From a phage, in the sequence record OZ346219.1: DNA of 64,000 nt; one strand, 5' to 3'. A program made the position numbers and the translations under genes. Shown in pieces: positions 38,023 through 43,534 of this stretch. Numbering within the stretch: the stretch's first letter is position 1; each line of letters begins with the position of its first letter. The notes below the pieces were generated by a model. It was not told the DNA's origin. It saw only the letters and a list, made by a program, of their open reading frames with translations, and did not search any database.

Positions 38023-38493
38023 TTACAGTTTGGTCGTCCACTCCAGGTCTAGATCTTCGACATACTCATGAGATCGGACAATCTCTAAATCGAACTCTAG
38101 GTCAGTACCAAATTTACGCGCACCAACATCATAAGAAAGCGTGATATGCGGTACATATTCAGGATAATCCCACGTCGCACCTAAAGCAGTGCCTATATCG
38201 TGTCTGAATTGCATGTAGTCGCTTTCAAATGCCAACACAAGCGCATTAGTACCGGATTGAGTTTCAAACACTTTAAGATGGCATAGAGAGCCTAAAAACT
38301 TTTCACCCTCTTCTGGTATAAACGGAACATAGACACGAGAATATAAGATAGTGCTATGCAGTTTATCACGAGGAACGGCATTAGGCAGATCGTAGAACTC
38401 CTGCAATTTTTCAATGCGGTCTAGTGTATCCTCAGTGAATTTAACCGCCGCATATGTACCTTTAACGGATTCTCTAAACGGGGTCATAATCAA
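38023..38493 (-). CDS. acb1: 2H phosphoesterase, Acb1-like (T4 57B position; cyclic-oligonucleotide phosphodiesterase candidate)
   Basis: Two H-x-T/S motifs (HSTIL, HITLS) about 90 aa apart; 156 aa; immediately downstream of gp57A-like gene as in T4. Confidence 0.6.
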   Translation of the reverse strand: MIMTPFRESVKGTYAAVKFTEDTLDRIEKLQEFYDLPNAVPRDKLHSTILYSRVYVPFIPEEGEKFLGSLCHLKVFETQSGTNALVLAFESDYMQFRHDIGTALGATWDYPEYVPHITLSYDVGARKFGTDLEFDLEIVRSHEYVEDLDLEWTTKL

Positions 38494-38747
38494 GCCTCCG
38501 TGATCAGTTCTACTTCCTCTTCCGCTGCGTCGTCTTTAGGGAGAAGTGCTTTCACTTCTTCGACAATAGCATCAAGGGAAACAGTCCCGTTTTCGTCTGG
38601 CTGAATACCCAGAATGCGTACCAGTTCCATCAATACACACTCACGATCTTTCAGTTGGCCTTCTAAGAATGCGGCCTTTTCTTGAGTGTCAAACAGACGT
38701 ACTTTCAGGACATTAATCATTTGTTCATGCTGATTGGACATATTCAC
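38490..38747 (-). CDS. 57A: gp57A-like tail-fibre assembly chaperone (small coiled-coil protein)
   Basis: 85 aa, acidic coiled-coil, position immediately downstream of gene 1. Confidence 0.5.
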   Translation of the reverse strand: MNMSNQHEQMINVLKVRLFDTQEKAAFLEGQLKDRECVLMELVRILGIQPDENGTVSLDAIVEEVKALLPKDDAAEEEVELITEA

Positions 38748-38773: not shown

Positions 38774-39430
38774 TTAAATGTTCGCGAGAATCGCGCTTTC
38801 AAATTCTTCTAATGTACCATTATTTATGATAATGGTTTCACCGTCAATAGGCAAAATTCCTTTTTCGGTGGAGTGAGTAGATACAATACCAGTATCACGC
38901 TGAATATGCAACACCTTAGCACCCATAGCACGCATGAGAGCAATTTCAATAGGCTGACGCACATCAACCACTACAAAATACCCTTCTTCATTTTTGCGCT
39001 TCATAAACTCATCCACAAAGAGATTACACCAATAAAGCGGATTGATCAAGTTAACCATTATATCAGTACCGAGAGTGGTTAACATGAGACGAATAGACCA
39101 GACGTTATTATGTTTTTCTCCGATCTCATTAACAACCTTGTAAATCTCAGCCAGACGATCACAAGTAAAGGAACTACCGCCATACTTCGAATCTAGCATA
39201 AGCAGACACTGAATAAACCACTTATGCGCGGTATATGTATCAATACCTAGATCGGCTTCTCTGTCACGCCCTAACCCATCAAAGTCAAGATAAGTCAGAC
39301 CTAAGTCTGGTTGACATTCGCATAAGATTTCTTTGATCGGTGCTGCCAGTTGATAACTATGTCCATCAATTATTAACGCGGCAGTGTCTTTTCCTACTCG
39401 CTTTTTACCACAAAGTGCAATCAGTTTCAT
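38774..39430 (-). CDS. 1: Deoxynucleoside monophosphate kinase gp1
   Basis: MKLIALCGKKRVGKDT... and conserved blocks match T4 gp1 (MKLIFLSGVKRSGKDT...). Confidence 0.85.
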   Translation of the reverse strand: MKLIALCGKKRVGKDTAALIIDGHSYQLAAPIKEILCECQPDLGLTYLDFDGLGRDREADLGIDTYTAHKWFIQCLLMLDSKYGGSSFTCDRLAEIYKVVNEIGEKHNNVWSIRLMLTTLGTDIMVNLINPLYWCNLFVDEFMKRKNEEGYFVVVDVRQPIEIALMRAMGAKVLHIQRDTGIVSTHSTEKGILPIDGETIIINNGTLEEFESAILANI

Positions 39431-39445
39431 TATATAAGCCTCTTA

Positions 39446-40036
39446 TTACTTTCTAAAAGCAGGGTGCATAGCTTTAATACCTTCCACCCGCTGACGATCC
39501 GCCGCCTGAATTGCTGGGCGAGGAACGATCAGTTGACCATCACGTTCAATGCTCATTGTTTTAAAGGGAAGAATTGCAGTACACACCAGAGATTCATGCA
39601 TATCATCGGTGTATGTTAACTCAAGTTCCCCCAATTGTGAACACCAACAACCATAAAAGTTAAAAGTGCACACAATGTTACGTCGTTCGTTGTCCATCAT
39701 GTGAACTTGAACGGCTTCCGGCATTGAATCCTTCCACGCAGTGGAGTTACCGTTATTGTAGTCTACTATAGAAAGCATCCATGTGTAAAGGTTTAGATAG
39801 CTTTCCAAATGCTCATCGACAATAAACCGGACTACCAACGGGTCAAACTCCACATGACTAGACGGATAATCAGCGACCGCCAAACCATATTGACCAGCAA
39901 CTTGCTTAGTCGGTGGAATGGTTATAGCAGGAAGTGTAACACCTTGAGCATTTAAAGTAAAGCCTTTTGTTAGCTGTCCATCTGGAATATTGATCTGCCA
40001 GTTGCTAGGGTTAGCATAGTTAAAGAGATTAGACAT
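39446..40036 (-). CDS. Probable gp3 tail tube terminator / sheath stabiliser (by synteny)
   Basis: 196-aa ORF immediately upstream of gene 1; sequence not independently recognised. Confidence 0.4.
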   Translation of the reverse strand: MSNLFNYANPSNWQINIPDGQLTKGFTLNAQGVTLPAITIPPTKQVAGQYGLAVADYPSSHVEFDPLVVRFIVDEHLESYLNLYTWMLSIVDYNNGNSTAWKDSMPEAVQVHMMDNERRNIVCTFNFYGCWCSQLGELELTYTDDMHESLVCTAILPFKTMSIERDGQLIVPRPAIQAADRQRVEGIKAMHPAFRK

Positions 40037-40225
40037 TACTGATTCCTCAAATGAAAATATTTATTAACAATTGTCGCTTTGCGACGTGCCGTAGGCACTG
40101 ACTACTTTTTAACCGAAACAAATTTTTATTATTCTAAAGATCTTTCTTCGTTTTGGTTATGTTTTAACCAATAACTATATTTTTATACAGTAATAAATAA
40201 AACGGGTACTATACGAGGACTTCTT

Positions 40226-40480
40226 ATGACAGAAGACATTTTGTTAAAACTCTATGATCGTCTGGATAACGAATTAGCAACATTGCGGGGTGAAGTTCTC
40301 TATTTGTCTAAATGCAATACAGATCTGCTTAAGCAGATTGCAGAAAGGGATGATCAAATAAAATCCCTTTCAGGTGCATTACGTGATCGCGACAAGGCAT
40401 TAGAGATTTTACAGCGTGTTACCAATAAGGAAGAATTAAAAGACTTCTTACATGGTTATGCTCATGCTATCGATCTATAA
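40226..40480 (+). CDS. Hypothetical coiled-coil protein
   Basis: 84-aa plus-strand ORF with SD; followed by bidirectional terminator. Confidence 0.45.
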   Translation: MTEDILLKLYDRLDNELATLRGEVLYLSKCNTDLLKQIAERDDQIKSLSGALRDRDKALEILQRVTNKEELKDFLHGYAHAIDL

Positions 40481-40481
40481 T

Positions 40482-40513
40482 AAAAAAGCCCGTCAATGAC
40501 GGGCTTAATTTTT
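40482..40513. terminator. Bidirectional rho-independent terminator
   Basis: GCCCGTCAATGACGGGC hairpin flanked by A-run and T-run. Confidence 0.6.
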
Positions 40514-41540
40514 AATATGTATCAGCTAATTTAATTATGTTATCAAGTTCCGTGATTGGTAAAGTTTCTGTGTATCCATCTTTCAACATGGATTTATCAA
40601 CAACGCCACAATGATAAGTTCTCTTTATTTCCTTTTCAAGTTCCCACGGAATCCAGCCATCAACACTTTGTTTGACGTAAACAAGTTTGTGAACAAACTT
40701 AGATTTCTGCATATGTTGTTTCATTCTGGTTTCCGGTAATTCATTGGTTACACCAAACTTTATAAATTTATCATCTAACGTCTGGATATAAAAATATCCC
40801 ATCTCAGATGGACGATAGCCAGAAGAACTACATTTCGGACACCCTTTAGCATTTCTGTTGAACGTACAATATCTTACGGAAAATTCTGCATCATGTTTTG
40901 TACATTTAAGTTTTATCCATGAATTTGCAGTACCTATCCATTCACCATCGACACCTATATATTCATACCCTAACTTTTTACATTTATCTTCTATTCTAGA
41001 TAGTGCATCTTCCACGGGAACGACATATTCCATCTTAAATTGTTCAGCCGCGCATTTCTTACAACCACATGTACCATGATTTTTAAAATCAAAGAACTTT
41101 GTATTCTTCCAAATATGGTCATGTTTCTTGCATCTAAGAATCATCTTAGTAATTTGTGATTTCCACCCACCAACAAATCCCAAAAATTCATAATCAAGAT
41201 CTTTACATTTTTCTTCAATGAATTTGGTTGCTTCCTCTTCTGTCATAACTCCCCTACATTGAGGGCAACCAACAATAACCTTTTTAGCATAGAAACTATT
41301 ACTGGAAACATCATAGACAGATCCATGCTTATTGCATTGGATAACAGATCTAGTCAATTTTCCTTTCCATTCTCCAGAAAATCCTAAAAATGTATGGTCG
41401 ACAAGTTTACACCTCTCAATAACTTTGTCCGCAAATTCTCTAGGAGATTTTGTTACTTTGTTTACTCTGTATTCTATTTCTTCCGGTTGACGAAGATCAT
41501 AAACGTGGGGATTGCTCCCCACGGAATTAATATTAAGCAT
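40512..41540 (-). CDS. Three-fold Cys/His zinc-ribbon repeat protein with C-terminal GIY-YIG-like (T5orf172-type) domain; homing-endonuclease-like
   Basis: Three about 50-aa repeats (FLGFxGxW...CxKH...CPxC) and C-terminal GYFYIQ...KFGVTN...R...H; ATG overlaps stop of upstream gene (ATGCTTAA). Confidence 0.5.
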   Translation of the reverse strand: MLNINSVGSNPHVYDLRQPEEIEYRVNKVTKSPREFADKVIERCKLVDHTFLGFSGEWKGKLTRSVIQCNKHGSVYDVSSNSFYAKKVIVGCPQCRGVMTEEEATKFIEEKCKDLDYEFLGFVGGWKSQITKMILRCKKHDHIWKNTKFFDFKNHGTCGCKKCAAEQFKMEYVVPVEDALSRIEDKCKKLGYEYIGVDGEWIGTANSWIKLKCTKHDAEFSVRYCTFNRNAKGCPKCSSSGYRPSEMGYFYIQTLDDKFIKFGVTNELPETRMKQHMQKSKFVHKLVYVKQSVDGWIPWELEKEIKRTYHCGVVDKSMLKDGYTETLPITELDNIIKLADTY

Positions 41541-42354
41541 CCTTCCACACCTTCCTTGCATCATAGTTTTTACCTTTAGAAACAAATTTATATGTGTTAA
41601 GGTAGATAATATTGCTCCAGTCTTTCGGGCTAATCTCAACAAGTTTTGTTTTAATGTGTCCAGGTAGATATGCTTTGATCATGTGATCACTTCCACGCAT
41701 ACCTTTTACATCGCTCCATTTGATTTTTAAGCGTGTTTTATTGCTCAAGGTAGGAGTAGATGCATATTGCTTTAAAAGTGCCTCTAAAAACTGCTGACGG
41801 GCTTTAGGCGTTACATAGTGTAAGTTAAGACCCAGCATTACAGTATTACCCGCCTTTGTCTTAGAATCACCCAGACAAATGATCAGCGGGAAAACATCCC
41901 AATATGGCAAAGTGTCTTTATACTTCGCATCATACATAAAGGTATAGATTCGCCCTACTTGCGGTTTTACAATCTGGTGTCCCTTTATTCCCGCTTTTAT
42001 TGTTTTAGTAAACCACTCCTGTGATTTTTCTTTAGGACGACTCTTTGATACAGCACGCATAGACGCACGAAAATCATTAATCATCATCATTGCGCGTTGC
42101 TGCTTATTGAGACCCTTTGCTCCTTTCCCTTTTAGTTTTTCAACTTCTATTGCTGTTTTAATTTCGCTGGCATAACGAGACATACTTTTAGTGAAAGTCG
42201 CATAGGCTATTCCCTTAGAATCTGCAAATGCTTTAGCTGTCATACCTTTGGCTTTTGCTTTCGCAAATTCTACACCCAATTCGACCCACTGTTTAGACTT
42301 TCGTTTTTGGGGAGACGGCTTTTCGTCTTCTGTGATTATTTCAAATACGCTCAT
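41533..42354 (-). CDS. Probable gp2-like DNA end-protector protein (by size and synteny)
   Basis: 273 aa, located between gp4 and gp3 as gene 2 in T4; sequence not independently recognised. Confidence 0.35.
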   Translation of the reverse strand: MSVFEIITEDEKPSPQKRKSKQWVELGVEFAKAKAKGMTAKAFADSKGIAYATFTKSMSRYASEIKTAIEVEKLKGKGAKGLNKQQRAMMMINDFRASMRAVSKSRPKEKSQEWFTKTIKAGIKGHQIVKPQVGRIYTFMYDAKYKDTLPYWDVFPLIICLGDSKTKAGNTVMLGLNLHYVTPKARQQFLEALLKQYASTPTLSNKTRLKIKWSDVKGMRGSDHMIKAYLPGHIKTKLVEISPKDWSNIIYLNTYKFVSKGKNYDARKVWKDA

Positions 42355-42365
42355 AATATTATCCT

Positions 42366-42839
42366 CTATTTGTTAAGACCTTTAAAGCCAAACACTTTCT
42401 TTAATGCATGTTCGGTGATGATCTTAAACTCCATGTTATGCTTTTGGCATAATTTCACGGCAGCTAACCATTTTTCAGTATTTTTTGTGTATGTCCATAC
42501 TTCATGCATATATCGTTGCTTTGTCTTCGCGGTCATTCTTTTTGGCTTTTCCGGTGGCCTTGTCTCTTTAGCTGGTTTAACTTCCCATAAATGCTCCTTG
42601 CCATCATCAAACTTAACGTAAAAATCCATAAAGTATCTGTGTCTTTTCCCGTCTGTTGATGACTCATAAGGAATTACTACGGTCTCAGATCCCCATTTTG
42701 CAACTCTAGGATTGCGGTCTAAAAATTTCATTATATGTAATTCCCAACTTGACCTGTAGACGATTTTTTTCAGGTCGCCTTTATACTTCTCCGGGTTTTC
42801 AGGTCTATATTTACCCTTATATGTGTTGCAATTACCCAT
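42366..42839 (-). CDS. 4: Head completion protein gp4
   Basis: YKGKYRPENPEKYKGDLKKIVYRSSWE...WEVKP matches T4 gp4 (YKGKFNPKNRKKYVGDLNNITYRSSWE...). Confidence 0.8.
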   Translation of the reverse strand: MGNCNTYKGKYRPENPEKYKGDLKKIVYRSSWELHIMKFLDRNPRVAKWGSETVVIPYESSTDGKRHRYFMDFYVKFDDGKEHLWEVKPAKETRPPEKPKRMTAKTKQRYMHEVWTYTKNTEKWLAAVKLCQKHNMEFKIITEHALKKVFGFKGLNK

Positions 42840-43534
42840 TATACCACCTTCTTCTTGCAGTTGTCACCATGCCATCTAACATAATTTCCCTGATTGGCTG
42901 TTTTTCCACAATGAGGACAGGTGAAATACGGACGAGACTTTGACAATTCACTATATTTTTGTTTCATTTCTGGCGTGTTATGAATACGTTTCCATTTCTC
43001 TACGTTTTCTTGTGACAACTTTCTACCCTTACCCGCTTTAGAGATGTTGTCTCTCCATTCTTGTGTAATTTCTCTTGACGCAATATTTCTTTTATGTTCT
43101 TCTGTAAACACTCTACCTTTTAATGAAGCAGATAATTTCTGTCGATGTTCCTCAGATAATTTAATTCCTTTTCTCTTTCCTTTAGTTGCTTCTGATATTC
43201 TGCGTCTAGTCTCTTCGGATCTTTTTCTTCCTGTATGAAATTTTCTTGAAGTCTCGACCGCAAGTTTTCTTACCCACTCAAATTGTTTATTGTTATAGTT
43301 GGTAGACCCCATCAATATTTTCGCCGCATGTACAATTCCGTGATGTGTTGGATGCATTTTTGCTAAAAGTTGATGAGCAACAAAATGTTCAGACCCCGTT
43401 AACTCAACTATATTTTCTGGACTATCATCACCTCCCATACAACGAGGAATAATATGATGTTTTTCTTTATATCCTTCAAGCGTTCTATGCTTTGCGCGTT
43501 CAATTAATCGATCATAATGTTTTTGATAGTCCAT
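42839..43534 (-). CDS. HNH homing endonuclease with NUMOD-like repeats
   Basis: HHIIPRCMGGDDSPENIVELTGSEHFVAH HNH core plus repeated TGRKRSEETRRRIS / LSEEHRQKLS modules. Confidence 0.75.
   Translation of the reverse strand: MDYQKHYDRLIERAKHRTLEGYKEKHHIIPRCMGGDDSPENIVELTGSEHFVAHQLLAKMHPTHHGIVHAAKILMGSTNYNNKQFEWVRKLAVETSRKFHTGRKRSEETRRRISEATKGKRKGIKLSEEHRQKLSASLKGRVFTEEHKRNIASREITQEWRDNISKAGKGRKLSQENVEKWKRIHNTPEMKQKYSELSKSRPYFTCPHCGKTANQGNYVRWHGDNCKKKVV

Follow-up and report, generated by a model that had tools for sequence, protein, structure and literature searches.

A gene on the minus strand of a phage genome segment was characterised by sequence comparison and structure prediction. The segment, referred to here in its whole length as the window, comprises 64,000 nucleotides (nt) of sequence record OZ346219.1. 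The gene lies between gene 2, which encodes the DNA end protector gp2, and an open reading frame (ORF) of 84 residues on the opposite strand, ORF84. Its sequence and distribution indicate that it is very probably a free-standing homing endonuclease gene (HEG) of the T5orf172/CapR class, whose product would cleave DNA and promote homing. The domain identities of this product, the precise presence or absence of the gene at one site, a cluster of linked substitutions in gene 2, recombinant alleles and purifying selection were each observed in the sequences compared.

Insertion site and the linked gene 2 tract

A 3-kb query around the gene identified the window as Krischvirus, a RB49/Phi1-like T4-type coliphage. 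The query matched 59 phage records, all of them Krischvirus, with FL37 as the top match at 99.6%, and all counts within the genus given below were taken over these 59 records. Orthologues of the nuclease gene, defined by at least 80% amino acid identity in tblastn, were found in 11 records, nine of them with the type A form present in the window and two being Phi1 records. The gene is absent from the other 48 and is therefore dispensable. Distant relatives, at less than 60% identity, were detected by tblastn in 432 further phage records. The interval from the gp2 stop to the stem of the following terminator is 6 nt in HEG-less phages and 1027-1033 nt in carriers. Thus gp2 abuts the terminator in empty genomes, and the net insertion in the window is a precise 1022 bp between the two, with flanks that are approximately 98-99% identical between carriers and empty sites. 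Junction alignments revealed an imperfect direct repeat at the two ends of the insertion (Table 1), where empty sites hold a single TTAATGTTATGCATC; since the repeat is short, it is weak evidence that approximately 12-15 bp of the gp2 end were duplicated at the original insertion. ECD7 shows a minor difference in length where the nuclease gene meets gp2: a 6-nt tandem duplication (ATTAAT, equivalent to window ~41527-41538) places the extra residues 'NI' behind codon 3.

The first-pass annotation of the window had described two genes, the nuclease gene and ORF84, as a mobile insertion between genes 3 and 2, and had proposed a synteny comparison as a check, with universal presence as a refuting result. 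The neighbours it named were recovered as gp3 and gp2 by protein family matches, the ATG of the nuclease gene (41540-41538) was confirmed from the sequence to overlap the gp2 stop TAA (41535-41533) by 8 nt, and the bidirectional terminator it reported was found on both strands. The nuclease gene also behaved as a mobile insertion, being present in 11 of the 59 records, precisely absent from the empty genomes examined and so not universal. The two-gene insertion was not borne out, because ORF84 is present in all 59 records, and the insertion is instead a single 1022-bp cassette between the gp2 stop and a pre-existing terminator.

ORF84 was detected by tblastn at 95% or more amino acid identity in all 59 records, with or without the nuclease gene, reaching at least 99% in 53 of them, and was found nowhere else in the phage collection by the same method. 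It can be ruled out as part of the mobile insertion and is a genus-specific resident gene. Its position in the first-pass annotation was correct, and its description as a coiled coil is probably right, the Pfam matches to coiled-coil families being weak (E values no better than 0.01). Only in comparison with T4 would ORF84 count as an additional gene. The terminator is common to ORF84 on the plus strand and to gp2 or the nuclease gene on the minus strand, and its sequence is identical or differs by one mismatch between empty and occupied genomes; on these alignments it is resident and older than the insertion. ORF84 converges on gp2, and a TAATAAATA motif lies approximately 25-40 nt upstream of the starts of both ORF84 and gp3, within the 189-nt divergent intergenic region between them (40037-40225).

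Five carriers were compared with five non-carriers over approximately 1.3 kb on the gp2/gp4 side and approximately 0.3 kb of informative sequence on the ORF84 side; the remaining left-flank sequence was uninformative because the Skers record begins there. Every one of the 19 differences fixed between the two groups fell within 41536-41602, the last 67 nt of gp2, and none was found elsewhere in the compared flanks. Five of the 19 change amino acids (YMPTYQFMSKGKK to YLNTYKFVSKGKN). The carrier allele of this tract is 100% identical in the nine type A carrier records and approximately 84% identical in 38 non-carriers. Both sporadic presence at one precise site and a tightly linked tract, two marks of a homing gene, were observed. 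The 3′ end of gp2 is the presumed target of the nuclease, and the tract would be a co-converted, cleavage-immune version of this target region.

Three HEG-less phages, MIZ4, MIZ5 and kvi, are mosaics that carry most of the HEG-linked tract. In the two examined at the sequence level, MIZ4 and kvi, the first 1-3 variable positions beside the empty insertion point have the non-carrier sequence, and the crossovers in the mosaics lie approximately 5-30 nt from that point. The mosaics fit one-sided gene conversion from a break inside gp2, and their tracts could be either resistant 'scars' or precursors. No description of the gene 2 3′ end as a homing site was found in the papers searched.

All six copies of the nuclease gene that were compared are intact. 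The ratio of nonsynonymous to synonymous substitution rates (dN/dS) was 0.09-0.27 in four informative pairs, and the FL37 copy is identical to that of the window; the gene is under purifying selection.

Domain structure of the predicted nuclease

The first-pass annotation gave the gene product as a protein of 343 residues; the position of the ORF was correct, and the length is 342 residues plus the stop codon, which had been counted. The three Cys/His-rich repeats that it described, and the C-terminal GYFYIQ...KFGVTN segment that reminded it of T5orf172/GIY-YIG domains, are both present, and a nuclease-like fold, whose absence it had named as refuting, was found.

The Pfam family CapR (PF21817) matched the protein in three stretches with an E value of 7e-15 and 55.4 bits, against a cut-off of 24.2 bits. 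Each of the three repeats also matched CapR as a separate fragment, and the fragment of repeat 1 alone matched DUF723 as well (E 1e-3). Alignment of the repeats revealed a candidate zinc-ligand set of the form C-x2-H...C-x2-C that is invariant in all three. The CapR motif has been quoted as CxxC...CxC (PMC10448857), so that the second ligand is His in the window repeats and Cys in the quoted motif. A CapR match was obtained for all 33 homologues aligned. These matches suggest that the repeats form a putative zinc-dependent, sequence-specific DNA-binding module.

The C-terminal domain was examined in the 33 aligned homologues, in which Y251, K261, G263, R272, E302, D321, G322 and E325 are invariant. 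Tyr251 lies in FYIQ, Lys261, Phe262 and Gly263 form a 'KxG' version of the YIG motif, and Glu325 lies in DGYTET. The invariant residues fit the GIY / (K)xG / Arg / Glu pattern, with Y251, R272 and E325 at the GIY, Arg and Glu positions. At E values of 0.01 or below, MUG113 (PF13455) was matched by 14 of the 33 homologues and T5orf172 (PF10544) by 13. The window protein itself matched neither family, with the full protein at E ≤ 1 or with the C-terminal fragment at E ≤ 10, and its T5orf172/MUG113 membership is suggested transitively, through these homologues. The related GIY-YIG model (PF01541) aligned with residues 250-286, covering the GIY, YIG and Arg positions, at E 0.049 and 14.4 bits, which is under the 22.6-bit cut-off. 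No NCBIfam family was matched by the protein.

The AlphaFold model of residues 236-342 had a predicted local distance difference test score (pLDDT) of 93.6, a predicted template modelling score (pTM) of 0.86 and a β-β-α-β-α topology, and the model has the α/β fold expected of a GIY-YIG domain. A search with this model among viral predicted structures returned 87 matches at E ≤ 1e-3, and those with names are CapR-homology, GIY-YIG, T5 Orf172 or homing-endonuclease proteins. The homologue matches to T5orf172 and MUG113, together with the matches of the model, bear out the proposed likeness to T5orf172/GIY-YIG domains. The C-terminal domain is described here as a predicted DNA-cutting domain.

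In GenBank the nuclease gene carries no names other than 'hypothetical protein', which most records use, 'endonuclease' and 'putative GIY-YIG nuclease'. No paper on the gene was found in a literature search that covered sources other than the table of Phi1-unique ORFs in the Phi1 paper. No paralogue was detected within the window by tblastn (best off-target E 0.19). A paralogue of approximately 30-32% identity occurs at another locus near 139 kb in Krischviruses that lack the gene beside gp2 (RB49, AY343333 139420-140370; GEC-3S, HE978309 138977-139900), and tblastn placed the family at three positions in FL37; the family is therefore multi-copy in Krischvirus. Relatives of 28-35% identity were also found on large contigs of Salmonella enterica and E. 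coli, up to 1.36 Mb in length, where they are labelled 'GIY-YIG nuclease family protein' by NCBI and presumably sit in prophages or other mobile elements.

Allelic variants, mechanism and alternatives

The Phi1 allele differs from that of the window in a mosaic manner. The nucleotide identity between the two is 93-98% over codons 1-90, falls to 57-77% over codons 91-240, which hold repeats 2 and 3, and returns to 99-100% over codons 241-343, which hold the nuclease domain. Identity is 91-98% in repeat 1 and, when calculated in 90-nt bins, 53-78% in the stretch of repeats 2 and 3; repeats 2-3 (window 40824-41246) have been swapped between the alleles. The 3′ tract of gp2 in Phi1 also differs from that of the window. 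The Phi1-type repeats 2-3 and the Phi1-type gp2 tract recur together in the divergent phage contig L016, whose gp2 shares just 83% identity. The DNA-binding module therefore moves jointly with the tract beside it.

A second lineage was identified at the same site in five JSE-type records, including JSE, PTE-Eco09, G37-3 and AV108, which brings the records with some nuclease gene between gp2 and ORF84 to 16 of 59. The JSE endonuclease also consists of three CapR repeats and a T5orf172 domain, and it is encoded in the same orientation between gp2 and the ORF84 terminator. It differs from the window gene in that the two proteins are 27% identical, in that a terminator of gp2 itself and a 56-nt spacer separate it from gp2, and in that the adjacent gp2 is much more diverged. 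It is conceivable, although we consider it rather doubtful, that the junction of gene 2 and ORF84 is a contested homing site, at which nucleases cleave the tracts linked to other variants. There would then be at least three variants (window type A, Phi1 type B and JSE type), each with its own 'immune' gp2 tract. If true, this would be a natural allelic arms race in which the swap of whole zinc-finger modules re-targets a T5orf172 nuclease, and it would drive amino acid change in an essential virion protein, because the tracts alter five gp2 residues.

For the homing endonuclease reading the following course of events can be proposed. The nuclease gene is probably transcribed with gp2, since its start overlaps the gp2 stop. 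The three CapR repeats would recognise an extended site within the 3′ end of gene 2 in HEG-less relatives, and the C-terminal GIY-YIG-type domain would cut there. In a mixed infection the break would be repaired from the HEG-carrying genome, so that the HEG and approximately 67 nt of the gp2 tract are copied. The 19 differences in the tract, a pattern seen in the alignments, may then guard the carrier against self-cleavage.

The expression of the gene may be limited by a hairpin in its first codons (Table 1). This hairpin lies inside codons 6-12, 10 nt past the gp2 stop, and is kept in all carriers including Phi1. It is terminator-like, with a GGGG...CCCC stem that resembles the PeSL cassette stems of RB49 and Phi1 (PMC2839356), and may attenuate read-through from gp2 or regulate expression of the nuclease gene. 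The true start of the gene may be 7-8 codons further upstream, as the carrier allele has in-frame ATGs at 41564 and 41561, which serve as the annotated start in FL37. The first residues are disordered in the model and absent from distant homologues, which makes the assigned start tentative. A nuclease-specific late promoter was considered at 41592-41585 on the minus strand, where the linked gp2 allele creates a TATAAATT motif. It is not claimed here; TATAAATW shows no enrichment, with 9 occurrences in the window against 15 expected, and Phi1 and L016 are without the TATAAATT motif.

Several points weigh against the homing endonuclease reading. Cleavage, homing and expression of the gene are all inferred. 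The window protein reaches no Pfam nuclease threshold, and phmmer and profile hmmsearch against PDB sequences returned nothing meaningful. Foldseek with the full-length model found no match in the PDB at E ≤ 1e-3, owing to the beads-on-a-string form of that model (pTM 0.38). The correspondence of Y251, R272 and E325 to Y6, R27 and E75 of I-TevI is tentative. The association counts of gene and tract are not phylogenetically independent, and gene loss by a nearby crossover would yield the same mosaics. The substitution cluster could also simply mark where a segment of foreign DNA, imported along with the gene, comes to an end, and have no role in immunity.

This last point belongs to an alternative that we hold to be improbable, namely that the gene is passive cargo, inactive or never site-specific, which was moved by homologous or illegitimate recombination at stem-loops in the manner of PeSLs, the linked gp2 tract being the end of the imported patch. 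Recombination at stem-loop cassettes whose stems have the form GGGG...CCCC was often the source of differences between RB49 and Phi1 (Arbiol et al. 2010, PMC2839356). The hairpin within the nuclease gene has such a stem, and its flanks align with those of the resident terminator in empty sites; there is also the short imperfect direct repeat at both insertion ends. However, PeSLs hold sigma-70 early promoters and lie in hyperplastic regions, whereas the insertion site is surrounded by late structural genes and has no strong promoter beside the hairpin. Passive transfer is also hard to reconcile with a gene whose copies are all intact and under purifying selection. Nuclease-driven targeting is favoured by the finding that a single site holds two unrelated lineages of this nuclease class and that the DNA-binding repeats vary in step with the adjoining tract.

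A domesticated derivative of a HEG, acting as a DNA-binding regulator like PLE CapR and modulating late or structural expression around gp2, is a still more improbable explanation. The repressor CapR did give its name to the family of the DNA-binding repeats, translation of the gene starts in coupling with gp2 within an operon of late structural genes, and the gene is under purifying selection. Yet CapR-type regulators stem from the DNA-binding part of such genes (PMC10448857), while the window gene still encodes the nuclease domain, complete with all family-invariant residues, and no other part of the gene is as well conserved between the window and Phi1 (99-100% of nucleotides). In addition, absence from 48 of the 59 records makes the gene dispensable, and neither the linked tract nor the mosaics are expected of a regulator.

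The explanation to which we give the least credence is a conflict nuclease directed against a satellite (as with ICP1 Odn), the host or competitor DNA, its variable presence being turnover of accessory genes: T5orf172 nucleases have been co-opted against satellites (PMC10448857), homologues of 28-35% identity occur on long contigs of Salmonella and E. coli and the swap of repeats 2-3 could reflect re-targeting, but this leaves unexplained why all fixed differences cluster in the adjoining 67 nt of gp2, why a JSE-type relative occupies exactly the same site and why HEG-less mosaics carry the tract, and the protein has CapR repeats only, with no satellite-derived DNA-binding domain such as RepA_N.

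Neighbouring genes and known systems

The features of the region are listed in Table 1. Beyond the HNH/NUMOD3 ORF, gp53 and gp5 come next on the plus strand.

Table 1. Positions of the nuclease gene, its predicted domains, the insertion site and neighbouring genes (window coordinates, except for the JSE gene).
Feature	Position	Strand	Details and basis
57A	38490-38747	-	
gp1 dNMP (deoxynucleoside monophosphate) kinase	38774-39430	-	
gp3	39446-40036	-	phrog_45
ORF84	40226-40480	+	phrog_17832, E 2e-57
Bidirectional intrinsic terminator	40486-40506	both	9-bp stem; terminator scan
Nuclease gene under study	40512-41540	-	ORF list; phrog_681 'endonuclease', E 1e-78
Left copy of imperfect direct repeat, TTAATATGTATC	40512-40523	.	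junction alignments
Predicted GIY-YIG-fold nuclease domain, T5orf172/MUG113 kind	40515-40835	-	residues 236-342
CapR repeat 3	40824-41030	-	residues 171-239; candidate ligands C213, H216, C234, C237; CapR E 3e-7
CapR repeat 2	41043-41246	-	residues 99-166; candidate ligands C137, H140, C160, C163; CapR E 1e-7
CapR repeat 1	41247-41450	-	residues 31-98; candidate ligands C69, H72, C92, C95; CapR E 2e-3
Hairpin	41504-41523	-	8-bp G+C stem, GCAA loop; terminator scan; RNA fold z = -3.0
Right copy of imperfect direct repeat, TTAATATTAAGCATC	41527-41541	.	junction alignments
gp2 DNA end protector	41533-42354	-	phrog_429, E 3e-71; annotations of relatives
gp4	42366-42839	-	
HNH/NUMOD3 ORF	42839-43534	-	HNH + NUMOD3; phrog_655, E 1e-64
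JSE endonuclease	NC_012740 65901-67043	same orientation as window gene	YP_002922206; T5orf172 E 0.007

Residues 1-75 of gp2 matched a separate PHROG, 'HTH (helix-turn-helix) DNA binding protein' (phrog_32288, E 4e-27), and the remainder matched the DNA end protector family; gp2 of JSE is annotated as a shorter protein of 248 residues. The HNH/NUMOD3 ORF is a second free-standing homing endonuclease gene, between gp4 and gp53. It was found in six of the 59 Krischvirus records (Brandy, ELT4, PTE-Eco09, MIZ2, MIZ3 and MIZ6), none of which is among the 11 carriers of the nuclease gene beside gp2. The window phage thus appears to combine two insertions that do not co-occur in the collection.

As a selfish gene, the gene under study is ordinary, and its class is already on record from other phages; it brings no conceptual change, and its value is practical. 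We know of no experimental demonstration of homing by T5orf172/CapR endonucleases, in the papers searched or elsewhere. The phages compared here provide a natural test set on E. coli K-12, approximately 98-99% identical in the compared flanks. This set offers carriers (FL37, ECD7 and G2248), empty sites of the sensitive type (RB49 and kaaroe), empty sites with the linked tract (MIZ4 and kvi), an allele with swapped modules (Phi1) and a second lineage (JSE). It would suit measurements of cleavage specificity, of the length of co-conversion tracts and of re-targeting by zinc-finger swap. For annotation, a gene that is mostly recorded as 'hypothetical protein' can be corrected, and ORF84 should not be treated as mobile.

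The T4 proteins SegF, SegG and SegE are free-standing GIY-YIG homing endonucleases encoded between conserved T-even genes. They cleave the neighbouring gene of HEG-less relatives, leading to co-conversion, or marker exclusion, of flanking polymorphisms; reportedly this literature includes studies by Liu et al. from 2003 and Kadyrov et al. from 1997. The linked gp2 tract and the mosaics described here fit this behaviour. In Seg proteins the nuclease domain is N-terminal and is followed by a different type of C-terminal DNA-binding region, whereas the domain order of the window protein is reversed and its DNA-binding part consists of three CapR zinc fingers.

The closest parallel is with the T5orf172 HEGs of ICP1, T5-like phages and others, in which zinc-finger repeats precede a T5orf172 domain (Barth, Dunham and Seed 2023, PMC10448857). 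The window protein shares with these an N-terminal array of CapR type and a C-terminal GIY-YIG domain of T5orf172 type, and tcgB of ICP1 can be recognised as a homologue (26% identity, E 5e-6). Also shared are the variable presence among near-identical phages, the shuffling of DNA-binding repeats and a location beside essential genes, where regions of sequence exchange have their boundaries (PMC10448857). The window gene differs in its host lineage, T4-type Straboviridae (Krischvirus), T4 itself being without T5orf172 genes (PMC10448857), and in a nuclease domain so diverged that it misses the Pfam T5orf172 and MUG113 models. The CapR protein of PLE, the founding member of PF21817, is a satellite-encoded transcriptional repressor of ICP1 capsid genes that derives from HEG DNA-binding domains (PMC10448857). 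The window protein holds three copies of the homologous zinc-finger DNA-binding domain; unlike PLE CapR, it has kept a nuclease domain that is conserved, and its gene shows the population pattern of a mobile element.

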